In this document: positions 9,461 through 54,837 of the stretch, piece by piece
Layout: the number at the start of each line of letters is the position of its first letter
How positions within the stretch are numbered: the stretch's first letter is position 1
From: an archaeon
Lineage (GTDB): Archaea > Iainarchaeota > Iainarchaeia > Iainarchaeales > 0-14-0-20-34-12
DNA: 64,000 bases
Direction of reading: 5' to 3'
Assembly: GCA_038046645.1 (NCBI GenBank)
Contig: JBBSVU010000014.1
Location: 1,512-65,511, forward strand
Notes under the pieces: model-generated
Told to the model about the DNA's origin: nothing
The model's database searches: none
Seen by the model: the letters and a program-made list of their open reading frames with translations, nothing else
Program-made: the position numbers and the translations under genes

Positions 9461-9575
9461 TAACGTCTAAGAACCCACGCCTAAAGGTTGTTGATTTCTC
9501 GCTCCATTAAACTGCCTAACCTAAAGATTCGACTTTGATACTTAATAAAGGTCGGGTTATATTTACAAACATACT

Positions 9576-13244: not shown

Positions 13245-13314
13245 ACAATTTTCTCTTTCTTCTTTGAATAAAATATTTATTCTTTCTCTTTCGCAAAGAG
13301 AAAGAAAAAAGATT
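13245..13314. repeat. degenerate half-copy of the polypurine/polypyrimidine hairpin element, abutting the tRNA-Leu 3' end
   Basis: TTTTCTCTTTCTTCTTTGA...then a 12-bp hairpin TTCTTTCTCTTT-CGC-AAAGAGAAAGAA (13280-13306), 8 nt from the tRNA discriminator base. Confidence 0.45.
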
Positions 13315-15500: not shown

Positions 15501-15700
15501 CCAATCCTTTTCTTTTTTAGAAAAAAAGAAAAGTCTTAGGCCTATTCCAAAAGAAAAAACTGAAATAGTTAGCTTTTCTTTTCTTTCTTTTGATATGCTA
15601 CATTTCCAAATAAAATTCCTATGGAATTTTATTGGACCAGTAAAATTCTACGAATTTTACTTGGTTCTTTCTTTTCTTTGCGAAAGAAAAGAAAGAAAAG
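15501..15700 (+). repeat. full-length extragenic copy of the hairpin element (copy C) with two inserted short hairpins
   Basis: CCAATCC-[TTTTCTTTTTTAGAAAAAAAGAAAA]-GTCTTAGG, then CCAAAAGAAAAAAC...TTTTCTTTTCTTTCTTTTGA. Short hairpins at 15608-15633 and 15640-15660. Then CTTTCTTTTCTTT-GCG-AAAGAAAAGAAAG (15667-15695). Confidence 0.7.
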
Positions 15701-15706
15701 GTGCAA

Positions 15707-15924
15707 CGCTGGGGGCGAGATTTGAACTCGCGCGGGCTTGCGCCCAACAGCTAGCTGCCATTTTGTTCTGCCAAAAGAAAAACAGGAACTATTTATTAAT
15801 TATGAATACATTGAATTAAATTAGTTCTCTTTTCTTTTGGCAACCTACATTTTCTTTTCTCTTTTTAAGAGAAAAGAAAAGGCGGTAGCAGGCTGTCGCC
15901 TTAACCGGACTGGGCCACCCCAGC
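15707..15924 (-). tRNA. tRNA-Ser(GCU) with 133-nt intron at the canonical 37/38 position
   Basis: 5' exon 15886-15924, 3' exon 15707-15752. Acceptor GCTGGGG/CCCCAGC, anticodon loop CTGCTA|A, variable arm TGGGCGCAAGCCCGC, T arm GCGAG-TTCAAAT-CTCGC, discriminator G. Loop CUGC pairs with intron-3' GCAG (BHB-like). Confidence 0.9.
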
Positions 15925-21017: not shown

Positions 21018-21241
21018 GGACCCGTAGCTCAGTCTGGAATCAGAGCAATTCCCTCCTAAACCAAGCCTTTTTCTTTTAGGAAAAGAAAAAGGCTAGGCAT
21101 TATCCAAAAAGAAAACTAATAAATTATACTTAAACAGTTCTTTTTCTTTTGGGGTAACCCTAGACCTTTTCTTTTTCTTTTTAAGAAAAAGAAAAGGGTT
21201 GGGCAAGGAAGAGGTCCTGGGTTCGAATCCCAGCGGGTCCG
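21018..21241 (+). tRNA. tRNA-Arg(CCU) with 147-nt intron at the canonical 37/38 position
   Basis: 5' exon 21018-21058, 3' exon 21206-21241. Acceptor GGACCCG/CGGGTCC, D arm GCTC..GAGC, anticodon loop CTCCTA|A, T arm CTGGG-TTCGAAT-CCCAG, discriminator G. One A.G mismatch at 27:43. Confidence 0.9.
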
Positions 21242-28540: not shown

Positions 28541-29608
28541 TTGACACCAAATAAAAGGCCTGGAAATGCTAAACCAAAAAACCATAACAGGTTAAAAGCC
28601 TGGAAAGCCAAACTAACAAGACCGCAAAAAGGACAGAAATATCGGCTTCCAGAACTAGAAAGAAAATTAAGGATAGCTGCTGATTTTTATAACCCTTCAA
28701 TTGTTGCCACTAAAAGATTTATTAATGAATTAAACAGGATGCACCAAATAGGGCATGTTGACCCAAGGGCATGCAGCAGGATGTTTAAGAACATTAGGAA
28801 ATTTAAAAATGATTGGATAATAAGACAGGCAGGGGTATGGCAAGCTTTGGGCGAACAATATCAAAATCATCCATTATTCAGGTCATTTAATCCTGAATCA
28901 GCATCCGCAGCAAGTCACAACCAACAAGATACACTTTCAACCGCAGGTACACAAATAGGTGTTGCTGGTGAAAAAATCCCCCGACCGTTATCAGGCAAAC
29001 CTGTAAAATCAGTGAGGATAAATAGATTGAAACAGGTAACGCTTGCACTAAAATCTTTACGGTTGTTTTTACATGTGCAGATTGCACACCAAAGGATTTT
29101 TTCAGGGAAAGTCTTTTTCAGGAATGCGGTGCTTTCGGATGTTTTGGAAGAAACTATGCGATCTGCGTTTGCAAAATTCAGGATAAAAACAAATATAAAA
29201 GCAAAGTCTAGATTGATTGTAAAGACAGATCCTTATGTTCTTGGTTTAACTATAGAAAATATCCTTACAAATGCGGCAAAAGCTGTAGAACCTACTTATG
29301 ATGAAGTAATGCACAGGGCAGATGGCCAAGCAACTGAAGCAAGACAGGGCGAAATAAATATTACAATAGGCAAAAACAGCAGAGGAAAGGCATACTTAAG
29401 CATAAGGGATAATGGATCTGGAATAGATAAAGAAAAATTAGGCCAAGTTGTTAATGGCATGGTTTATGGCTGGGAAGGCAAGCAAACAATAAGCGGCGGG
29501 GTAGGAATGCCACTTGTAAGCAGGGCATTGCATCTGCTTGGAAATGTAAAATTAAGTGCAGAAAGTGAAGTAGGAAAATTCACTGAATTTACGCTTACGT
29601 TTGACTGA
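28541..29608 (+). CDS. histidine-kinase-type GHKL ATPase domain protein with basic N-terminal region
   Basis: N box LTIENILTNAAKA, G1 IRDNGSGIDKEKL, G2 SGGVGMPLVSRAL. No TM and no clear H box. TTG start 2 nt after the glyS stop, with GAGGTG upstream. Confidence 0.65.
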   Translation: MTPNKRPGNAKPKNHNRLKAWKAKLTRPQKGQKYRLPELERKLRIAADFYNPSIVATKRFINELNRMHQIGHVDPRACSRMFKNIRKFKNDWIIRQAGVWQALGEQYQNHPLFRSFNPESASAASHNQQDTLSTAGTQIGVAGEKIPRPLSGKPVKSVRINRLKQVTLALKSLRLFLHVQIAHQRIFSGKVFFRNAVLSDVLEETMRSAFAKFRIKTNIKAKSRLIVKTDPYVLGLTIENILTNAAKAVEPTYDEVMHRADGQATEARQGEINITIGKNSRGKAYLSIRDNGSGIDKEKLGQVVNGMVYGWEGKQTISGGVGMPLVSRALHLLGNVKLSAESEVGKFTEFTLTFD

Positions 29609-29657
29609 TTGAATATCTTTTTATTACTGTTCAACAACATGTTTTGTAACAATGCTG

Positions 29658-29735: not shown

Positions 29736-30407
29736 TTAAACCGTTTTCAGCAATTGCGGCAAGGCCTTTGCTTCTGCTTTTCTTAATAATTCTTGGAATG
29801 CCCTTCTATTCATTCCGCAACTTTGGGCTAACTCTTCCAGAGTAATATTTCTAGGCCAGGAATAATATCCTTTTTCCAGCGCTACTTTAATTGCCTGCGA
29901 TTGTTTTTCAGTTAATTGATAGGGCTTTTTATCCGGCTCAAATTTGTCAATGCTGAATACTTTCACTTCACCAACATCTTTTAATTCATCAACAGTCCTT
30001 GCAACTGCTTTTGGATTTGTGGTTAAAATATCAAATATTTCAAGGCCGCCCTTTTGTACGACCGGGGAAATGTAAAAGCTTTTCTCCTTTGCCACTACCC
30101 CATAAGTTGAGCTAGGGCTTTTAAAAATCATTAGGATAATTGCAAAATTCCCCACTTTTTTAAAAACATGCAATTCCTTTATTCTTGGCTCTTTTTTCAA
30201 TGCTGAAAGGAATTCATCCAGTTCTTTAGGGGAGGGGGCTTTTACCTGCCAGGATATTTTTACATATTCTGCATTCTTTGTCTTTTTGACAGTAAGAGGA
30301 TTGCTCAATTCTTTCATTTCAATATCAGGATATTTCCCTTGGAAATCCGAGCTAAAGCATCCTTGGTGATAAACACCAAATTTAGCTTCCTTGAGCTTTA
30401 TAGGCAT
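29736..30407 (-). CDS. HTH_10 (bacterio-opsin-activator-type) transcription regulator
   Basis: C-terminal LTEKQSQAIKVALEKGYYSWPRNITLEELAQSCGMNRRAFQELLRKAEAKAL. The N-terminus MPIKLKEAKFGVYHQGC is typical of the family. The track start (30446) would lie inside the IS right end. Confidence 0.75.
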   Translation of the reverse strand: MPIKLKEAKFGVYHQGCFSSDFQGKYPDIEMKELSNPLTVKKTKNAEYVKISWQVKAPSPKELDEFLSALKKEPRIKELHVFKKVGNFAIILMIFKSPSSTYGVVAKEKSFYISPVVQKGGLEIFDILTTNPKAVARTVDELKDVGEVKVFSIDKFEPDKKPYQLTEKQSQAIKVALEKGYYSWPRNITLEELAQSCGMNRRAFQELLRKAEAKALPQLLKTV

Positions 30408-30430: not shown

Positions 30431-30600
30431 GTGACATCCTCCACACTGTGGCTTCCTAATTCATTGGCTGCTTAATAGCAGCCTCCAAAGGCATACAGGT
30501 CTTGTCCAGACCCAATTTTAATATATTCAATGCTGCATTGTAGTCCCTATCTATTTCAAGGCCACATGCACATTTATGTATTCTTTCATATAATGGTTTT
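30431..30600 (-). ncRNA. putative TnpB omega/reRNA region (position inferred)
   Basis: Established knowledge: TnpB guide RNAs overlap the tnpB 3' end and terminate at the IS right end. Here the RE boundary is only 25 nt past the stop codon. No structure was verified. Confidence 0.3.
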
Positions 30601-31589
30601 TTAACTATTGTTCCGCACTTGTAACACTTGCTTGTTGTGTCCCTTGGGTTTACTTTTACAAATGAAATACCAGCGCTCTCAGCCTTGTACTTTAGCATTT
30701 GTAGAAAGTTACTCCAAGAAGCATCCATTATGTTTCTTGCTGTGTACGATTCTTTTATTATATTTCTCACATCAAGGTCTTCTGCAGCTACAAAATCATA
30801 GTTGTTTACATATTTTCTAGATAGCTTATGCAGGAAATCATTCCTTTGGTTGCAGATTGTTTCATGCACGTTAGCTACTTTTATTTTTTGCTTTGTTCTG
30901 TTGTTTGAGCCTTTCTTCTTTTTGAAAAGTTTTCTCTGCTCTGTTGCTAACCTTTTCAGTGATTTATTAAGAAACATGGGATGATCAATATGATTGCCAT
31001 CGGAGTCATAAATGAAGTTTATTGTTCCTAAGTCAAGGCCTATTGATTTGTTTGTCTTTACTCTTGGTTTTTCTTTCATGTTATGGATGCATAATAAAGC
31101 AAACCATTTTCCTGAACATTCTTTTTTTATCTGCACCTGTTTTATTTCTCCATTTATTATTCTGTGGGTTCTTATGGAAAGAGAACCTATCTTTGACAAA
31201 TGTAGTTTGTTATATTTCTTATTTTTTATTTCAAGAACAAAGCCTGACTGGTTATAGGTAAAGGTTTTGAACCAGTCTTTTCCTTTGAATCTCAAACAAC
31301 CTATGTTCTTTCCATTTTTCTTTAGCCTTGACAATGCCCTTAGGTTTGAGAATAATCTGTAACATTCATACTGCAGTGTTTTGGAATATATTTCATTCAG
31401 TTCTGGATATTGTTCTTTTAGCTTAGGTATTGCTGCTTGTATTTCTGATTGGTTTATTTCTTTTTGTTTGTTTAATATTTCAAGCAGTTTGTTGTATGTA
31501 AAACGGCATTTATCCAGAACAAAAAACAGTTTTTGTTCTTGTTCCTTTGATGGATACATCCTGAATTTGTATGTAAGCAGCATGAACAA
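30456..31589 (-). CDS. tnpB: TnpB (IS200/IS605 OrfB) RNA-guided endonuclease, catalytic residues intact
   Basis: N-terminus LLTYKFRMYPSKEQEQKL; RuvC-I GLDLGTINF; RuvC-II FVAAEDLDV; Zn finger CYKCG...HKCACG; RuvC-III DRDYNAALNI. Confidence 0.9.
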   Translation of the reverse strand: MFMLLTYKFRMYPSKEQEQKLFFVLDKCRFTYNKLLEILNKQKEINQSEIQAAIPKLKEQYPELNEIYSKTLQYECYRLFSNLRALSRLKKNGKNIGCLRFKGKDWFKTFTYNQSGFVLEIKNKKYNKLHLSKIGSLSIRTHRIINGEIKQVQIKKECSGKWFALLCIHNMKEKPRVKTNKSIGLDLGTINFIYDSDGNHIDHPMFLNKSLKRLATEQRKLFKKKKGSNNRTKQKIKVANVHETICNQRNDFLHKLSRKYVNNYDFVAAEDLDVRNIIKESYTARNIMDASWSNFLQMLKYKAESAGISFVKVNPRDTTSKCYKCGTIVKKPLYERIHKCACGLEIDRDYNAALNILKLGLDKTCMPLEAAIKQPMN

Positions 31590-31716
31590 ATAAAAGCTTT
31601 TTGGGCTTTATAAAGGATTGGAGAGAGTAGATTTCCTGTGAACTCTACTCGCTTTCATCTACATCTTGAAAGATGCAGATTTCCCGCTCACACGGTTAAA
31701 AAGCCTTCTTCCCACC

Positions 31717-31791
31717 TTCTCTTTTCTTTCTTTTCTTTGGGATAAACCCTAGACTTTTCTTTTCTTTCGCAAAGAAAAGAAAAGGCTTGGG
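31717..31791 (+). repeat. half-copy (arm' + hairpin) of the hairpin element (copy D)
   Basis: TTCTCTTTTCTTTCTTTTCTTTGG-GATAAACCCTAGAC-[TTTTCTTTTCTTT-CGC-AAAGAAAAGAAAA]-GGCTTGGG. Collinear with the 3' third of the tRNA-Arg intron. Confidence 0.65.
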
Positions 31792-31794
31792 AAA

Positions 31795-31808
31795 GTGACA
31801 TATGTCAC
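31795..31808. promoter_or_regulatory. perfect 14-bp palindrome GTGACATATGTCAC upstream of the radical-SAM operon promoter
   Basis: The palindrome sits ~13 nt upstream of the TATA-like TTTAAAAC (31821-31828). The operon ATG is at 31862. Confidence 0.35.
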
Positions 31809-31861
31809 TAAATGTTCTTATTTAAAACAAACATAATTTACTTAGTAACTTGATAACGTGA

Positions 31862-32242
31862 ATGACTATGTTCATAGAATTTCTATATAGTATTATGACC
31901 CTGAATATTGGCTGGTTTGTGGAATTGTTTGCAAATAATATACTTCTGGCAGTTATGGTTCTCACTGCATTTGCAATATTCTACCAATTCAAGATGAAGA
32001 ACGCCATATTTGCCACTGCCCTTATTTTTATACAAATATGGGTAATTGATGAAACATTAAGCATGCTTGGCGCAGTTATGTTTGTCGGAAGCTTCCTGCT
32101 CATATACTATATCTGTAAGATGGGGGTATGGATTGCTGCAGATGAAGACCCAAAATTAAAAAAGCATTTAATTCCGATAAATGAAGCTGCATGGATGATT
32201 CCTTTGCTTGTATACAACCTGTTCAGGATGGGGATAATATGA
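31862..32242 (+). CDS. small polytopic membrane protein (about 4 TM), unknown function
   Basis: 126-aa hydrophobic ORF. Its stop overlaps the next start (ATGA at 32239-32242). Confidence 0.5.
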   Translation: MTMFIEFLYSIMTLNIGWFVELFANNILLAVMVLTAFAIFYQFKMKNAIFATALIFIQIWVIDETLSMLGAVMFVGSFLLIYYICKMGVWIAADEDPKLKKHLIPINEAAWMIPLLVYNLFRMGII

Positions 32243-32415
32243 GCATACTCTCAAGGATGATTGGAAGTTTAGTGCTTGCTATCTTGGCATTTGCGCTACT
32301 AAGCTCTCTGTACAACAATGGTGCTACAATGATTCACGAAGAATTATTTTCTGCCACAGGCATAGGGATATTATTTTTCTTCATGTGGATTGAATGGGAA
32401 TTCTTAAGGTTGTGA
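32239..32415 (+). CDS. 58-aa 2-TM membrane protein
   Basis: MSILSRMIGSLVLAILAFALL...GIGILFFFMWIEWEF. ATG at 32239 inside track ORF 32191, translationally coupled to the upstream gene. Confidence 0.45.
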   Translation: MSILSRMIGSLVLAILAFALLSSLYNNGATMIHEELFSATGIGILFFFMWIEWEFLRL

Positions 32416-32424
32416 TGTGAAAAT

Positions 32425-33525
32425 ATGAATTATAATTTTGACAATAAAGTGCATGCATGGGGTTATTTTTCAGAGGAATATTTGCAGCAGAATAAGGAAA
32501 AATTATTGACATTAGATATTGATTTTGGGGCAAATTGTTCATTAAACTGCCCACACTGCTTCAGGAGAAAAAATAAAGTTGATGAAATAGGAAAAACGCT
32601 TCTTACTTCAGGGGAAATCCTTGAAATATTAAAACAAGGCAAGGAATTAGGGTTGGAGTCTGTTAAATTTTTAGGTGCAGGTGAACCGTTTGAAGAACCG
32701 CAATTTATAGATTTTTTAGAAGAATTGCAGAAACTAAATATTAAAGCAAGCATTTTTACAAAAGGGCATGTATTAGGGGATAATAATCTTGCAAGAAAAT
32801 ATTTTTCACATAAGGGAATCAATTCTGCATTGGATTTATGCGAAAGAATAAAGGCATTGGATGCAAGCATTTTGCTTGGCTTTAATTCAATTAGCGCAAG
32901 CATACAGGACAGAATGGTTGGAAATATTCAGGGTTACACAGCAAAAAGGAATAAGGCTTTGGAGAATTTAATTAAATCAGGGTTCAATAAGGAAAAACCA
33001 ACAAGATTAGCCTTGATTCTTGCGCCACTAACAAAAGAAAATTATGATGAGGCATTTTGGATGTATATTTTTGCAAGAAGCATTAATGCACTCCCATTTA
33101 TTACTACCCCAATGGTAAGCGGAAGATGCTCAAATAATGAATATTTGGAAAGAATTAAAGTAAATGAAGAAGAACTTATTGAACTGTACGTAAAGATTAA
33201 CAAGTATAATATTGAACAGGGTTTGCAAACATTAGCGCAGTTGAAAAAAGAGGGAATTTCAATTTATGCAGGCGTACATCCCTGCAACCAAATAGCATGC
33301 GGAATGTACCTTACATTAAATGGCACTGTTTTAAGATGCCCAGGAGATGATGTAACTGTTTTTGGGAATGTAAAGGAAAAAAGCCTTAAAGAAATTTGGG
33401 AAAATTCTGAGAATTTTAAAAGAACAGGCACATTTAACTGCGGCTGCCCGCCAAAAGAGGGCATTACCTTGCCAAAAAATCTGCAAAGCGAAGTTTTGAA
33501 AAGATTGGAAAAAGAATTTGGATGA
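32425..33525 (+). CDS. radical SAM enzyme with Cys-rich C-terminal (SPASM/twitch-like) region
   Basis: CSLNCPHCF (Cx3Cx2C), GAGEPF (GGEP-like), and a C-terminal C-x4-C-x12-C-x33-C-x-C (HPCNQIACG...LRCPG...FNCGCP). Confidence 0.85.
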   Translation: MNYNFDNKVHAWGYFSEEYLQQNKEKLLTLDIDFGANCSLNCPHCFRRKNKVDEIGKTLLTSGEILEILKQGKELGLESVKFLGAGEPFEEPQFIDFLEELQKLNIKASIFTKGHVLGDNNLARKYFSHKGINSALDLCERIKALDASILLGFNSISASIQDRMVGNIQGYTAKRNKALENLIKSGFNKEKPTRLALILAPLTKENYDEAFWMYIFARSINALPFITTPMVSGRCSNNEYLERIKVNEEELIELYVKINKYNIEQGLQTLAQLKKEGISIYAGVHPCNQIACGMYLTLNGTVLRCPGDDVTVFGNVKEKSLKEIWENSENFKRTGTFNCGCPPKEGITLPKNLQSEVLKRLEKEFG

Positions 33526-33529
33526 GAAA

Positions 33530-34558
33530 ATGGTTAAATCAAATATTTCACAAAAAGAAGAGCAGATATTAAAATCAATAAATGTGAATTCTGACAATGA
33601 CCCTAAAAAACCAGAATACCCACCTTGGAACCCGAGATTTCCTACTACCCCGACGTACAAGATAAAAATTCCAGGCTTTAATGAAGTGCTTCTGAAGGAT
33701 GAGAGCAAGAATCCTACTGGAACGCATAAGGGAAGGTTAGCATGGGAAATTGTATGCTGGTACAAATCATTTTTGGAAGCAAAAAAATTAGGGGCAATAA
33801 ATACTGAATTGCCGCAATTTTCAGTAATAAGCTCGGGAAATTCTGCCTATGCGCTTGCTTATTTCCTGCAAAAATTTGACCTGCCAAAGCCAAAAATATT
33901 GATAGACATAAATACTAAAAAAAGCATTATTGATTTTTTAAGGAAACAATATTGTGAGTTATATTTTACTGATTTATCAAGAAAAGCACTTGAATCTAGG
34001 GAAATACTTGCATTGACTGAAAACAGAAATGGCTTTGACATTACCTCAAATAATGCATTAGAGCCTGCATCTATTTTTTATGACTGGATGTCATTTGAAA
34101 TAATAAATAACGCGCCAAATTATGTGCTATTGCCTTTTGGCTCTGGCGATTTATTCACAAATATATGCAATTGCATAAAGAAACAGATAGTAGCGAATAA
34201 AAAAGATCCAAGATTGATGGTAGATATAAACAAGCTGAGGACATGCAACATTATTGGCGCTACAGTAAATATTCCAACAACTAAAGCAGATAAATTATAT
34301 TCTCCGCATTTGCCTTTTGTTCATTTTGATGAACATTGGCTTGCATTCTACAAAAAATTCGGTTATATTGGTGAATCATCTGGAGTTTCAATTGTAAGTG
34401 AAGAACACTTGGAAGAGGCAATTGATATGGCAAAACAGCTTGGCGTGGAATGTGAACCTTCAGGGATTGCTGGATTGGCTTATTTGTTACAGAACAAGCA
34501 AAGATTGCCAAAGAATAAAAGAATTTTAATAGTAAGCACTGGGAAAGGTGTAATATAA
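33530..34558 (+). CDS. fold-type II PLP-dependent enzyme (threonine synthase/cysteine synthase superfamily)
   Basis: LKDESKNPTGTHKGR (PLP-Lys motif; family consensus is ..E..NPTGSFKDR), SSGNSA, LPFGSGD. ATG at 33530, 4 nt after the rSAM stop. The alternative TTG at 33518 overlaps it by 8 nt. Confidence 0.75.
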   Translation: MVKSNISQKEEQILKSINVNSDNDPKKPEYPPWNPRFPTTPTYKIKIPGFNEVLLKDESKNPTGTHKGRLAWEIVCWYKSFLEAKKLGAINTELPQFSVISSGNSAYALAYFLQKFDLPKPKILIDINTKKSIIDFLRKQYCELYFTDLSRKALESREILALTENRNGFDITSNNALEPASIFYDWMSFEIINNAPNYVLLPFGSGDLFTNICNCIKKQIVANKKDPRLMVDINKLRTCNIIGATVNIPTTKADKLYSPHLPFVHFDEHWLAFYKKFGYIGESSGVSIVSEEHLEEAIDMAKQLGVECEPSGIAGLAYLLQNKQRLPKNKRILIVSTGKGVI

Positions 34559-34605
34559 CCTATTCTGCTATTGCAGATACTTTATTTGACACTTGACGAA
34601 ACGTA

Positions 34606-34613
34606 TTTAAATA
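34606..34613 (+). promoter_or_regulatory. TATA box for a leaderless XRE-regulator transcript
   Basis: TTTAAATA is centred ~24 nt upstream of the ATG at 34634. Confidence 0.45.
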
Positions 34614-34633
34614 AGTATTCTCAGAAATAACAT

Positions 34634-35347
34634 ATGCTTGAGAAATTACCTTCAACAATTGCTGGTGAAATATCACTAAGCAAAGACCCTGGAGGCAGCA
34701 TAAAGAAATGGAGAGAAATCTTTAGCATCACCCAGACTGATTTGGCCAAAGAATTGAAGATAAGCCCTTCAACAATAAGCGATTATGAGGGGGGGAGAAG
34801 AAAGAACCCTGGCATCAATGTAGTAAGCAGATTTGTAAATACAATTATCGAGATTGATAGAAAAAGGGGCGGCAAGATAATTAAACAGTTAGAAAAAGAT
34901 TTTGAGCCAAGCTTTGATGCATTTGAAATACATGAATTTTTAAAAGCTTTAAAAGGGGCTGATTTCCTGCAACTTATTAATGGAATTTGCTTGGCAAATG
35001 AATCTAAACTGCAGGAAATAAACATTTATGGATATACAATAATTGACTCATTAAAAGTAATCATAAAAGTGCCTGTGCATGAGTATATGCATCTTTACGG
35101 AAAAACACCGGAAAGAGCCTTAATATTTGAGCAGGTTGAAACCGGAAGAAGCCCGCTAATTGCGGTAAAAATCAGCAAGTTTAGCACAAACATGAATCCT
35201 GCAATTATTGTATTGCACACTCCGAAAAAGCCGGAAGAGATAGATGCTGTTGCAATAAAAATTGCTGAAAGCGAAAAAATTCCTTTAATCATAACTGCAA
35301 AACCTCTTGCGGACATTGTCAAGGACTTGCAGAAATTCGAAACATAA
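34634..35347 (+). CDS. XRE-family HTH regulator with C-terminal uncharacterised domain (archaeal COG1395-like)
   Basis: FSITQTDLAKELKISPSTISDYEGGRRKNPG HTH_3 motif, followed by a ~160-aa C-terminal domain. Confidence 0.75.
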   Translation: MLEKLPSTIAGEISLSKDPGGSIKKWREIFSITQTDLAKELKISPSTISDYEGGRRKNPGINVVSRFVNTIIEIDRKRGGKIIKQLEKDFEPSFDAFEIHEFLKALKGADFLQLINGICLANESKLQEINIYGYTIIDSLKVIIKVPVHEYMHLYGKTPERALIFEQVETGRSPLIAVKISKFSTNMNPAIIVLHTPKKPEEIDAVAIKIAESEKIPLIITAKPLADIVKDLQKFET

Positions 35348-35528
35348 CCAAGCCTTTCTTTTCCATTTCAAGCGAAGCTTGAAAGGACCTATAAAACCTA
35401 AGGTTTTATGTGGTCTTTGCGAAAGAAAAGAAAGTCTAGGTATTACAAGTAAAATTCTATTGGAATTTTACTGTACACTAAAATCCTTTGGATTTTAGTC
35501 GTATCCAAAGAAAAGAAACTATTTTTTT
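35348..35528 (+). mobile_element. 181-nt hairpin-element copy (copy E) flanked by a perfect 16-bp direct repeat
   Basis: GAAATTCGAAACATAA occurs at 35332-35347 and 35529-35544. The element is CCAAGCC-hairpin-GTCTAGG-TATTA..TATCC-AAAGAAAAGAAAC, with four inserted short hairpins (35366-35384, 35391-35409, 35449-35471, 35477-35499). Confidence 0.7.
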
Positions 35529-35580
35529 GAAATTCGAAACATAAATAAGAATATTGCACTAATGATAGGTAAGGGAAAGC

Positions 35581-42764: not shown

Positions 42765-42903
42765 TAAAGGACATAAATATTTGGCTATAATATAATCCTT
42801 TACTACAACTTAAAGCAAGCTTTAAGTGTACAATTAAATCCTTTGGATTTAATTTGTATCTAGCAAAAGACAATAAAAGTCTCAAAATTAAAGTCTTTTG
42901 CTA
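42764..42903. repeat. array of four short perfect hairpins in the nadA-nadC spacer
   Basis: GTAAAGGA..TCCTTTAC (42764-42803); ACTTAAAGC-AA-GCTTTAAGT (42808-42827); AATTAAATCC-TTT-GGATTTAATT (42832-42854); TAGCAAAAGAC..GTCTTTTGCTA (42861-42903). Confidence 0.65.
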
Positions 42904-47316: not shown

Positions 47317-47368
47317 TTTAACCGTGTGAGCGAGAAATCTACATCTTTTAGGCTGTGGAGGATGTCAC
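47317..47368 (+). mobile_element. 52-nt derivative of the IS200/IS605 element: left end and right end directly abutted (PATE/MITE-like)
   Basis: TTTAACCGTGTGAGCGAGAAATCTACATC (27/29 identical to the IS left end) + TTTTAGGC + TGTGGAGGATGTCAC (15/15 identical to the IS right end). Confidence 0.65.
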
Positions 47369-47461
47369 ATGAACTTAATTATGAAACTTAATTACTTTTT
47401 AATCTTCGACAGAATGTCGAACATCTATTAATATATTCCTTCAAACCATCAAATTATTCAT

Positions 47462-53823: not shown

Positions 53824-54837
53824 TTAAAACTCCTCTCTTGGCTTTCTTCTAAACCCTCTTGAATCATCTCTTCCAAAGCCTCTTGGCCTACTGTCTCCAA
53901 AGTCACTTCTCGGTCTGTCTCCAAAGTCACTTCTTGGGGCTCTCGGTCTGTCTCCAAAGTCACTTCTCGGTCTGTCTCCAAAGTCACTTCTTGGGGCTCT
54001 TGGCCTACTATCTTCAAAGTCTCTTCTTGGTCTATCTCCAAAGTCTCTTCTTGGGCCTCTATGAAATCCACCTTCTCTTCTTGGCCCAAAGCTCCTATCG
54101 CCAAATGGCCTTCGATTTCCAAATGACCTTCTTGGGCCTCTCCTGAAATCCCTTTCACCATAGCCCTCATCTGAACTCATATCAAACATCTCGGATTCTG
54201 GATGTTCTGAAGTATCTTTTAATTCTGCCTTCTGGTCAAGATAGGCTTTCATGCGGTCAGTCAAGCTGCTTAAATGCGCCTCATCATTTATTTTTTCTAC
54301 TGCTTCTCTTAGAAGTTTGACTGCTTGGTCAGAACCCTTAACCCATATTCGGCCGTTTTTTCCAACAACCATCTGGACGCCGGTGCCAGTAGTAAGCACT
54401 TCAAGCATACTGCCATTTTTTCCAATAATTCTAGGAACCTTTACCGGGCTTGTAGTAATTAAATCCCCACCCAAAAATGGTTTTATATCCTCAAGCTCAA
54501 CCTGGTTCACTTCATTTACACTAATTATTTTTGCCATAACCATTGCGCCTTTATTTAATTTTTTTCTTACTCCCTCTTTTCTGAAAAAAGCCGGGCTGAA
54601 TGAATTTATATTTATAGAATAACCTGCAAAGGATTCATCTCCAATTAATCCAACAATGACATCGCCTTCCTTAGGCATATATTTGCCTTGCAAAGGTATT
54701 ACCCTGGCAATATCTGATTCGGATTCTGCTATTCCCAATGCCTCAGAATATATTTTTCCTTCCCTTTGGTAGACATTTTCCCCTGCTTTCTTTCTTTCTT
54801 CAGTAACTAATTCTCCTGGTACTACAATACGTTTCAT
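53824..54837 (-). CDS. rrp4: exosome RNA-binding subunit Rrp4 with ~100-aa Arg/Asp/Phe/Gly-rich repeat tail
   Basis: N-terminal, S1 and KH domains (VPRIIGKNGSM), then tail repeats RPR(AP)RSDFGD. Confidence 0.9.
   Translation of the reverse strand: MKRIVVPGELVTEERKKAGENVYQREGKIYSEALGIAESESDIARVIPLQGKYMPKEGDVIVGLIGDESFAGYSININSFSPAFFRKEGVRKKLNKGAMVMAKIISVNEVNQVELEDIKPFLGGDLITTSPVKVPRIIGKNGSMLEVLTTGTGVQMVVGKNGRIWVKGSDQAVKLLREAVEKINDEAHLSSLTDRMKAYLDQKAELKDTSEHPESEMFDMSSDEGYGERDFRRGPRRSFGNRRPFGDRSFGPRREGGFHRGPRRDFGDRPRRDFEDSRPRAPRSDFGDRPRSDFGDRPRAPRSDFGDRPRSDFGDSRPRGFGRDDSRGFRRKPREEF
53892..54057. repeat. tandem 24/33-nt repeats (57-nt higher-order unit x2 plus degenerate copies) in the rrp4 3' region
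   Basis: GTCTCCAAAGTCACTTCTCGGTCT alternates with GTCTCCAAAGTCACTTCTTGGGGCTCTCGGTCT. Confidence 0.8.

Follow-up and report, generated by a model that had tools for sequence, protein, structure and literature searches.

The bulge-helix-bulge (BHB) tRNA introns of the Thermoproteales are reportedly proliferating, or 'transposed', introns. To our knowledge, extragenic copies of these introns with long target duplications have not been described. A second relevant case is the model of tRNA disruption in Caldiarchaeum subterraneum, in which the repeats are tRNA fragments that result from integrase-mediated attP x attB recombination of a multi-kb, recombinase-carrying element (Sugahara et al. 2012, PMC3293823). 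In circularly permuted and split tRNAs, exon halves stand beside complementary leader and trailer sequences that form the BHB (Chan et al. 2011, PMC3218864; Soma 2014, PMC3978253).

The locus described here lies in a 64,000-nucleotide stretch of Iainarchaeota DNA (the window), where two inverted half-copies of a tRNA-intron-like element, E31 and E35, bracket about 3.5 kb of genes. We think it probable that one repeat family supplied both, as solo copies that were acquired independently. The genes between them do not form a unit.

The half-elements and their repeat family

The two borders contain the following features:

31717-31791, plus strand: E31, solo half-element (sequence; nhmmer)
31717-31741: E31 polypyrimidine arm'
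31747-31753: E31 CCCTAGA
31754-31784: E31 14-bp polypyrimidine/polypurine hairpin
31784-31791: E31 GGCTTGGG
31794-31809, strandless: perfect 16-bp palindrome AGTGACATATGTCACT, just past E31; a TATA-like box and ORF126 follow
35332-35347, plus strand: first copy of the direct repeat, GAAATTCGAAACATAA, 16 nt at the 3' end of XRE, stop codon included
35348-35528, plus strand: E35, solo 5' half-element directly behind the XRE stop codon (sequence, alignment)
35348-35354: E35 CCAAGCC
35355 (start of 5' arm) to 35434 (end of 3' arm): E35 hairpin, split by the nested insert
35364-35414, plus strand: nested insertion of ~50 nt with two further small hairpins, in the 5' arm of the E35 hairpin (alignment gap)
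35435-35440: E35 TCTAGG
35441-35504: E35 two-small-hairpin module, 64 nt
35505-35518: E35 arm CCAAAGAAAAGAAA
35529-35544, plus strand: second copy of the direct repeat, GAAATTCGAAACATAA, duplicated target on the distal side of E35

The left border (arm', hairpin, GGCTTGGG) and the right border (CCAAGCC, hairpin, arm) thus read as the original prediction had described them, and its statement that their order is permuted relative to the intron copies was correct: GGCTTGG and CCAAGCC point inward, arm' and arm outward. Read on the minus strand, E31 is the conserved 5' module CCAAGCC-hairpin-CTAGG-arm and is matched by a profile of that module (nhmmer, E=2e-13). In the relative L114 a hairpin occupies the site orthologous to E31, between HTH_10 and the ORF126 homologue, with no insertion sequence (IS); the left part of the E31 polypyrimidine run, on the other strand, corresponds there to N-terminal K/E codons of HTH_10. 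The E31 hairpin was in the divergent HTH_10/ORF126 spacer first, and the tnpB IS, which now lies against it, came later. The AGTGACATATGTCACT palindrome is identical in L114, though the surrounding DNA is only ~72% identical, and is probably an operator, outside the repeat.

E35 ends in CTA plus T7, the last position being 35528, and is followed immediately by the second copy of the 16-mer. The element-free relative L111 has this 16-mer in single copy (GAAATTTGAAACATAG), and in the CG08 relative a diverged second copy (GAAATCGAAATATAA) is found at the same place; E35 is a discrete insertion with its own 16-nt target duplication. It is 84% identical to a relative's tRNA-Arg intron (alignment, E=1e-22) and 81% identical to its CG08 orthologue, which is itself 89% identical over 113 nt to the 5' half of the CG08 tRNA-Arg intron. 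The nested insert has no counterpart in the CG08 orthologue (blastn alignment gap 35362-35423), and three independent short-read assemblies break within it, at 35384.

Both half-elements are homologous, far above chance, to two tRNA introns in the window, which also holds two further extragenic copies:

13276-13310, strandless: lone polypyrimidine/polypurine hairpin with CGC loop, directly 3' of tRNA-Leu(CAA)
15501-15702, plus strand: full non-intronic copy (E15) with two small hairpins, directly 3' of tRNA-Ser
15753-15885, minus strand: element as 133-nt intron of tRNA-Ser(GCT), gene 15707-15924
21059-21205, plus strand: full element as 147-nt canonical (37/38) intron of tRNA-Arg(CCT), gene 21018-21241

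Removal of the 147 nt leaves a 77-nt tRNA-Arg(CCT), and ARAGORN, with introns allowed, calls tRNA-Ser(GCT) with its 133-nt intron; the intron copies are both genuine. A strict element pattern matched three times in the window and never in 100 shuffles. The tRNA-Arg(CCT) intron is the closest paralogue of E35 and E31 alike, and the orthologous CG08 intron has the same two-small-hairpin module as E35. The lone hairpin at 13276-13310 shares its loop type with the right-hand hairpins of E31, E35 and E15, a GCG/CGC loop being common to all four extragenic copies. Within the window the E31 hairpin matches no other hairpin better than that of E35, and vice versa (41/47, 87%); to its own orthologue, either hairpin is only ~70% identical. 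This points to sequence exchange between the two or to a common recent origin, but both sequences are short and low in complexity.

Introns of many different tRNAs contain the module, on contigs of 33-51% GC. Intron hosts of the family are Arg-CCT, Ser-GCT, Ser-TGA, Pro-TGG, Pro-GGG and Arg-TCG, T-loop positions are also used, and one tRNA has two introns. We also observed that the 5' module is widespread among archaeal tRNA introns. Four independent solo copies of the module, in the window or on other metagenomic contigs, each have their own direct repeats of 16-45 nt, and target duplications of this kind hint at the route by which these introns spread.

Genes of the interval and their counterparts in relatives

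The interval and its left flank comprise:

30431-31700, minus strand: tnpB-only IS (IS1341-like), in the 5' end of the HTH_10 gene, left end abutting E31
31862-34558, plus strand: variable accessory genes ORF126, ORF74, radical-SAM/SPASM and PLP
32425-33525, plus strand: radical-SAM/SPASM enzyme (Pfam)
33518-34558, plus strand: PLP-dependent enzyme (Pfam)
34634-35347, plus strand: XRE-type HTH regulator, 237 aa

The five genes between E31 and E35 are all on the plus strand. ORF126 and ORF74 gave no Pfam match, and the radical-SAM (rSAM) family is common to DPANN and CPR. The tnpB IS (Pfam OrfB_IS605, Cas12f1-like TNB and HTH_OrfB), whose ends were set against a 53-nt LE+RE mini-copy at 47317-47369, is absent from L114 and the CG08 relative, and population contigs break at it. 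XRE homologues number more than 1500 at 60-70% identity across Diapherotrites/Iainarchaeota, with the gene order XRE, NMD3, beta-CASP conserved; in distant relatives the element is absent and XRE stands stop-to-stop with NMD3, 8-15 bp apart, with beta-CASP nearby. The XRE-like gene is a native core gene of the Iainarchaeota (Diapherotrites), not cargo.

Contigs of the CG08 type have E35 and lack E31, the IS, ORF126/74, rSAM-SPASM and PLP; only a frameshifted 3' remnant of a B12-rSAM is present (87% at the amino acid level). The L111 contig begins inside the ORF126 homologue and covers the locus from there, with the E31 site outside; it has ORF126-ORF74-rSAM-XRE in the same place and lacks E35, its rSAM/SPASM (67% at the amino acid level) being followed by a B12-binding rSAM where the window has the PLP enzyme. 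Gene-content breakpoints fall at 30018, 33526 and 34558, none of them at the elements. The orientation of the interval is unchanged in all relatives compared (CG08, L111 and L114), and the population contigs are all collinear.

The interval from tRNA-Thr to XRE is a variable hot spot: across these three relatives the differences consist in an IS insertion, a replaced gene and a deletion. This supports its earlier description as an accessory hot spot, made from the adjacent tRNA-Thr and tnpB IS. Besides the window, L114 has E31 and CG08 has E35, so that both could have flanked the block in a common ancestor, and the bracket may for that reason be old rather than an accident of this genome. L111 stands nearer to the window than CG08 does, and its lack of E35 needs a precise loss or a recombination event.

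Origin of the bracketed arrangement

The half-elements are real but separate partial copies with different histories, flanking a mixture of native and variable genes. The family is a hairpin-rich module (CCAAGCC, polypyrimidine/polypurine hairpin, CTAGG, short spacer, A-rich arm), the near-palindromic full elements of which serve in this lineage as splicing-endonuclease introns in tRNA-Arg(CCT) and tRNA-Ser(GCT) and lie also beside tRNA genes and within intergenic spacers. E35 is an incomplete copy of the tRNA-Arg intron's 5' half, ~120 nt that run from the intron 5' end into the loop; it landed right after the stop of the native XRE-like gene, before the convergent NMD3, duplicating 16 nt of target, and gained the nested 50-nt hairpin insert afterwards. 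XRE is ancestral at its position, the ORF126-ORF74-rSAM block is common to the window and L111, and the PLP gene replaced the B12-rSAM at breakpoints unrelated to the elements. Solo copies may spread by a putative copy-and-paste route that leaves long, variable target duplications. They are probably carried along as neutral passengers, which only spacers or non-coding transcribed DNA would tolerate; as E35 ends in T7 between convergent genes, structural punctuation would be the most that they provide. As the full element is a near-palindrome, its 'left half' approximating the reverse complement of its 'right half', two inverted solo halves show either the intron order or the permuted order, and the latter would be a 1-in-2 geometric outcome. 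When placement was simulated, a pair of given solos came to lie in this orientation and within 3.8 kb with a probability of 3%, and some pair of the window's four extragenic copies did so with 16%; the arrangement alone is therefore not statistically compelling.

We consider it very improbable that the inverted halves acted as recombination substrates or like the two ends of a composite element, and that the 3.5-kb block arrived, inverted or went through a circular intermediate when element copies recombined. In favour of this, E31 and E35 are inverted repeats 3.5 kb apart, their hairpin cores are mutual best matches at 87% identity, and the interval is a hot spot of variation near an IS and a tRNA gene. 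However, this reading is contradicted by the XRE gene, which lies inside the bracket and is native to its position; the sole target duplication flanks E35 alone and not the whole block, E35 is found without E31 or the cargo genes and these without E35, and the block has one orientation in all relatives. Recombination between inverted repeats would, moreover, invert the segment rather than excise it, and composition is flat (GC content 0.347 between the half-elements, 0.358 over the whole window). Synteny already largely refutes mobilisation of a cassette. Of the two alternatives in the original prediction, independent half-element insertions are thus favoured by the comparative data, and arrival or rearrangement through the element is contradicted, among other things by the native XRE and by E35's own duplication; the same data contradict its placing of the genes at the junction of a circularised intron, and the half-elements are no markers of a moved cassette. 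A slightly slimmer chance still attaches to an RNA processing signal, in which arm' (31726-31741) and arm (35505-35518), and GGCTTGG and CCAAGCC, would pair within one E31-to-E35 transcript, rebuilding a circularly permuted intron junction. Splicing endonuclease and ligase would there cut out the operon RNA and close it into a circle, a course known from rRNA processing stems, permuted tRNA genes and split tRNAs. The complementarity is exact over 14 bp and 7 bp, respectively, all five genes are co-oriented, and RNA circularisation by archaeal BHB processing has precedent (PMC3218864, PMC3978253, PMC12558985), but such complementarity is a property of every family copy and not of this pair. The TATA-like box and conserved putative operator lie downstream of E31 (31794-31830), which places E31 probably outside the operon transcript, and the would-be splice-site flanks AAAGTGAC... 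and ...AAACATAA are not complementary, so that no bulge-helix-bulge can be drawn; CG08, besides, has E35 without its partner and L111 the operon without E35.

Domestication as regulatory hairpins is unlikely, if less so than either of these readings, and is compatible with independent origins of E31 and E35. E35 would persist because it terminates transcription in both directions or insulates the convergent genes from each other; E31 would insulate, or have a structural role in, the divergent HTH_10/ORF126 promoter region, and there would be a functional reason for both to occur around the operon. E35, a hairpin followed by T7, shows 81-84% conservation from the window to CG08, on a par with flanking coding DNA, and ends in CTATTTTTTT; similar hairpins lie directly 3' of tRNA-Leu and tRNA-Ser and, in a relative, 5' of tRNA-Thr, and the hairpin at the E31 site persists in L114. 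Against this, L111 and more distant relatives do without E35, the sequence of each copy does not stay orthologous but drifts towards other copies of its genome, and neither element was flagged by a terminator scan of bacterial type, a scan not designed for archaea.

Comparison with described systems

As two solo copies, probably acquired independently, E31 and E35 differ in several respects from the systems that they recall. The Caldiarchaeum subterraneum model likewise has genes between pieces related to tRNA genes or introns, a variable region by a tRNA and direct repeats at the insertion borders. This locus, however, has neither an integrase nor any fragment of a tRNA exon; what the duplication flanks is a non-coding insert of 181 nt, and some of the intervening genes are native. 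The order of a 3' half followed by a 5' half is formally that of circularly permuted and split tRNA genes (Chan et al. 2011, PMC3218864; Soma 2014, PMC3978253), but E31 and E35 are without exon sequence or a BHB.

Like prokaryotic MITEs and REP-like palindromic repeats, the family is short, non-coding, hairpin-forming, multi-copy and confined to non-coding DNA, with nested copies, filled and empty sites between relatives, and flanking duplication. Its duplications are variable and 16-45 nt long rather than a fixed few bp, however, and one of its ends is precise and the other ragged. A search for an autonomous partner with matching ends found none, the ends of the adjacent tnpB IS being unrelated, and many copies of this family, unlike those repeats, are functional introns.

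With the Thermoproteales introns the family shares the occurrence of one intron family in several non-homologous tRNA genes and positions, and removal by the splicing endonuclease. The differences are that it comes from a DPANN-like lineage (Iainarchaeota, together with unassigned contigs whose GC is 33-51%), that its introns are 130-250 nt long and elaborately structured with a sequence-invariant hairpin base, and that it also occurs outside genes, in solo and in full copies flanked by long target duplications.

Structure of the half-elements and of the intron copies

On inspection of the sequence, both borders of the bracket were found in the form given by the original prediction, with the inverted solo half-elements E31 and E35 on either side of the genes for ORF126, ORF74, a radical-SAM/SPASM enzyme, a PLP-dependent enzyme and an XRE-type protein. 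Two complete copies of this hairpin-rich repeat in the window are tRNA introns; the repeat has two complementary arms (arm and arm').

Copies of the element and of a small-hairpin family
31717-31791: E31; polypyrimidine arm', CCCTAGA, a 14-bp polypyrimidine/polypurine hairpin and GGCTTGGG
35348-35528: E35; CCAAGCC, hairpin, TCTAGG, two small hairpins, arm CCAAAGAAAAGAAA, CTA and T7
21018-21241, plus strand: tRNA-Arg(CCT), with a 147-nt intron (21059-21205) at position 37/38 built from the element
15707-15924, minus strand: tRNA-Ser(GCT), with a 133-nt intron at position 37/38 built from the element
15501-15702: further element copy directly 3' of tRNA-Ser
13276-13310: lone hairpin copy 3' of tRNA-Leu
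35441-35504, 15610-15668, 42821-42860 and 35364-35414, and 553-586 of the related contig L114: small-hairpin family

E31 and E35 are homologous in sequence to the bona fide intron copies. E31 matches the 5'-module profile with E=2e-13 (nhmmer), the strict element pattern has three matches in the window and none in shuffled sequences, and the 5' half of the tRNA-Arg intron is 81-89% identical to E35 or to the E35 orthologue. The full element is a near-palindrome whose halves are reverse complements of each other, and E31 and E35 are therefore the same half present twice, in inverted orientation. The order of parts described as permuted relative to the introns is real, but it is one of only two inverted arrangements possible; a placement simulation gave 3% for the E31/E35 pair and 16% for any pair among the four extragenic copies. 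The E35 hairpin has its 5' arm broken by a nested insertion of ~50 nt; when this is removed it matches the reverse complement of E31 at 87% identity, and each of the two hairpins is only ~70% identical to its own orthologue. A GCG/CGC loop is common to all four extragenic copies in the window, pointing to within-genome homogenisation or a common recent source. We do not take the likeness of the two hairpins as evidence for a crossover, the sequences being short. A likeness of the polypurine tracts to triplex/H-DNA or to a retroviral PPT would be no more than an analogy.

Removal of 147 nt (21059-21205) restores a 77-nt tRNA-Arg(CCT), and tRNA-Ser(GCT) with its 133-nt intron is called by ARAGORN when introns are allowed. 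Default ARAGORN, and Rfam at gathering score, reported only tRNA-Leu and tRNA-Thr in the window and missed both intron-bearing tRNAs. Both pre-tRNAs fold much better than shuffled controls (z = -6.7 and -7.9), the predicted fold being a three-hairpin intron with CCAAGCC paired locally with GGCTAGG. E31 and E35 themselves do not behave as introns. No tRNA exon sequence lies beside either; E35 directly follows a protein stop codon and E31 sits within a divergent promoter spacer. Each has one intron end only, the flanks are not complementary, and although arm and arm' are complementary, no bulge-helix-bulge (BHB) motif with 3-nt bulges and a 4-bp helix could be drawn from the flanks. A permuted or split tRNA gene was likewise rejected, as ARAGORN, Rfam and inspection of the sequence revealed no tRNA halves beside E31 or E35, and no tRNA or Rfam RNA was found at the inner borders of the bracket.

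The small-hairpin family (..TAAAATYC-loop-GRATTTTA..) is nested in or beside the larger element, with a solo copy at 42.8 kb of the window. Three short-read assemblies break at 35384, within the nested insertion of E35, which suggests that the small-hairpin modules are multi-copy.

The bracketed genes in related archaea

The source organism is a DPANN archaeon of the Diapherotrites/Iainarchaeota type, and contigs identical to the window originate from Hainich groundwater well H52. The only relative in the genome collection is 'Candidatus Diapherotrites archaeon CG08_land' (CG08), at ~80% nucleotide identity; synteny beyond CG08 was drawn from look-ups of exact protein matches. GC content is flat around the region (33-39%), and the bracketed DNA (0.347) does not differ from its surroundings (0.358), giving no sign of a foreign origin. 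The population contigs are all collinear across the locus and show no rearrangement.

The XRE-type gene (34634-35347, 237 aa) has >1500 homologues at 60-70% identity in Diapherotrites/Iainarchaeota. In relatives at ~66% amino-acid identity its stop codon faces that of NMD3, which is followed by the beta-CASP nuclease gene; the XRE/NMD3 spacer there is 8-15 bp and free of the element, and the genes upstream of XRE are unrelated. This synteny in element-free relatives indicates that XRE is native here and that E35 was inserted between it and NMD3. A 16-nt direct repeat private to E35, GAAATTCGAAACATAA, borders it on both sides (35332-35347 and 35529-35544), the first copy being the end of the XRE gene.

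The ungapped CG08-type contig L009 has the order half-element, tRNA-Thr, HTH_10 regulator, radical-SAM fragment, XRE, E35, NMD3, with the tnpB-only insertion sequence (IS) that abuts E31 in the window, E31 itself, ORF126/74, radical-SAM/SPASM, PLP and ORF137 all absent. The E35 of CG08 is without the nested insertion and retains a diverged second repeat copy. Over 113 nt it matches the 5' half of the CG08 tRNA-Arg intron at 89% identity, and that intron, not the window's, contains the two-small-hairpin module as in E35. The contig L111 is closer to the window, with nucleotide identities of 92% in XRE and 87% in NMD3/beta-CASP, and reads ORF126 homologue, ORF74 homologue, radical-SAM/SPASM, B12-binding radical-SAM, XRE, ORF171, NMD3; E35 is absent from it. 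The CG08 radical-SAM fragments correspond to residues 246-461 of the L111 B12-binding radical-SAM protein at 87% identity, and the ancestral order was therefore radical-SAM/SPASM, B12-binding radical-SAM, XRE. It follows that the window has swapped the B12-binding enzyme for the PLP enzyme, and that CG08 has lost DNA from HTH_10 into the B12-binding radical-SAM gene. The replacement within the operon sets 33518-34558 of the window (PLP-dependent enzyme) against 1614-2999 of L111 (461-aa B12-binding radical-SAM), of which L009 432-1099 retains only a 3' portion with a frameshift (87% aa). The tRNA-Thr-to-XRE interval is confirmed as the hot spot it had been proposed to be, the three relatives differing in it by the insertion of an IS, the exchange of a gene and a deletion.

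Two further features adjoin the E31 border.

Features beside E31
30431-31700, minus strand: tnpB-only IS (IS1341-like), which has split the HTH_10 regulator gene at its 5' end
31794-31809: AGTGACATATGTCACT, a perfect palindrome of 16 bp that precedes a TATA-like box and ORF126

In contig L114, HTH_10 adjoins the ORF126 homologue directly, with no IS. The spacer there comprises a small hairpin, CCCTAA, a polypyrimidine/polypurine hairpin and TCGGGG, and then the palindrome and TATA-like box as in the window. The presence of the hairpin without the IS implies that the E31 hairpin is an old resident of the spacer and that the IS later split the adjacent HTH_10 gene. The candidate reading of E31 as part of the IS was rejected on this ground and because the ends of the IS are fixed by a mini-copy of it. 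This 53-nt mini-copy (47317-47369) consists of the left end of the IS joined to its right end, and a partial one occupies 9479-9504; the first ~24 codons of HTH_10 are stranded at ~31701-31745. The palindrome is identical in L114, where the surrounding DNA is ~72% identical, and probably serves as the operator of either the divergent HTH_10 regulator or XRE. The promoter/terminator scan was of bacterial type and uninformative on archaeal DNA.

The original prediction offered two explanations for the bracket, namely that the cassette had arrived or been rearranged by way of the element, or that two independent half-element insertions happen to flank it. The former is not supported: it runs against the native XRE gene, the independent variation of the parts, the uniform GC content and the collinear contigs. 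The whole-unit presence/absence and whole-unit duplication of a composite transposon were not observed either, the sole duplication being that which flanks E35. Taken together, these comparative results are of the kind that the original prediction had named beforehand as refuting it. Independent insertion is supported: E35 occurs without E31 and has its own duplication, and the E31 hairpin is older than the IS. We consider it likely that E31 and E35 were acquired independently, each as a solo copy of a structured repeat that is widespread in tRNA introns, and that the genes they flank are partly native and partly variable.

Within the bracket, the radical-SAM/SPASM enzyme (32425-33525) belongs to a family common to DPANN archaea (Pacearchaeota, Nanoarchaeota, Iainarchaeota) and CPR bacteria (Nomurabacteria, Parcubacteria), at 52-60% identity. 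Its gene is preceded by two small ORFs without Pfam match, and the three may, from their arrangement, form a peptide-modification cluster. Elsewhere in the window, imperfect tandem repeats at 53843-54141 (spacing 24-36 nt; TCTCCAAAGTCACTTCT...) lie within a minus-strand ORF (53824-54837) and are probably a repetitive low-complexity protein segment.

Insertion signature of the solo copies

Non-palindromic direct repeats flank four separate solo copies: E35 (16 nt) and, from unrelated metagenome contigs, L081 (~18 nt), L103 (22 nt) and L057 (25 nt exact, ~45 nt imperfect). Only such non-palindromic repeats were counted as target duplications; none was seen at E31 or at L066, another contig matching the element. 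Direct repeats at T-loop introns (TTCGAAA ... TGCGAGAA) were rejected as duplications, since TTCGAA is a palindrome and what looks like a repeat is the complementary strand within the central helix of the BHB. In the solo copies the CCAAGCC end lies 0-3 nt from the repeat, which is the 5' splice-site distance in the intron copies, and the opposite end is irregular, carrying 3-25 nt of filler.

E35 occupies its site in both the window and CG08; the L111 site is empty, with the 16-mer in single copy. In CG08 the 5' leader of tRNA-Thr(CGT) also contains a half-element (arm', hairpin, GGGTTTTG; L009 40-105), and the window lacks one at tRNA-Thr (29600-29656), giving another filled/empty difference. 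The end of the CG08 XRE gene (AAACCTAA) and the anticodon loop preceding the Arg intron have CCTAA in common.

The element family, its possible movement and known systems

A metagenome search by the strict pattern gave 96 loci, of which ~80 are chance matches; the hairpin is present at ~15 loci, and a further ~10 share the conserved base but differ in the distal hairpin. The module base CCAAGCCTTTT/AAAAGGCTAGG and the tail nnTTAYCCAAAAA are near-invariant and the distal hairpin is variable. The GC content of the archaeal contigs that bear the element spans 33% to 51%. Introns with the module are present in tRNAs for Ser(TGA), Pro(TGG), Pro(GGG) and Arg(TCG), and some single tRNAs have two module-bearing introns. 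In contigs of 38-51% GC, T-loop introns open with the module, GGTTCGAAA being followed at the junction by A-CCAAGCC...; by eye, CGAG at the intron 3' end faces the T-loop TTCG, consistent with a central helix.

T-loop/double-intron contigs
L033, L060, L067, L078, L050, L088, L080; L063, L084

The notion that the module is always antisense to its host tRNA, as seen in 6-8 asymmetric copies, was discarded, the T-loop intron copies and contigs L064 and L066 having it in sense. Rfam held no matching family, gathering and permissive thresholds returning only sub-threshold generic hairpin (miRNA-precursor) matches. Viral contigs yielded no element, only five chance matches without hairpin or tail, and a literature search found no description of the family.

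The solo copies would fit a copy-and-paste of part of an intron, by a retroposition-like process or by templated repair. That they are footprints of the movement of archaeal BHB tRNA introns, and so of intron gain of this kind in DPANN-type archaea, we regard as an improbable proposal. An excised intron, or intron DNA serving as repair template, would be copied from its exact 5' end over a variable distance and pasted at new sites, leaving variable target duplications of 16-45 nt. The invariant hairpin base (CCAAGCCUUUU/AAAAGGCUAGG) would provide a ready-made helix for the splicing endonuclease, such that insertions in tRNA genes could be spliced and persist as new introns, and those outside tRNA genes, such as E31 and E35, would become inert solo copies. 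Since the bracket is not a mobile cassette, no new gene-transfer mechanism is implied; the radical-SAM and PLP genes are variable cargo of the ordinary kind in this hot spot. The gain and spread of archaeal tRNA introns can be approached concretely through sites occupied in one relative and vacant in another, as with E35 and its empty counterpart in L111.

Classical transposases leave target duplications of fixed, short length; those described here are long and variable, and are thus not a classical transposase signature. The element resembles a MITE or other non-autonomous DNA transposon in having filled and empty sites among relatives, but differs in that its duplications vary in length whereas those of MITEs are fixed. 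The full copies are near-palindromic and the solo copies have no inverted termini, and the ends of the only IS in the 64-kb window, the tnpB IS, are unrelated to the element. Proliferating archaeal tRNA introns are already known, and the element family described here, with its duplication-flanked solo copies, is a new form of this phenomenon.
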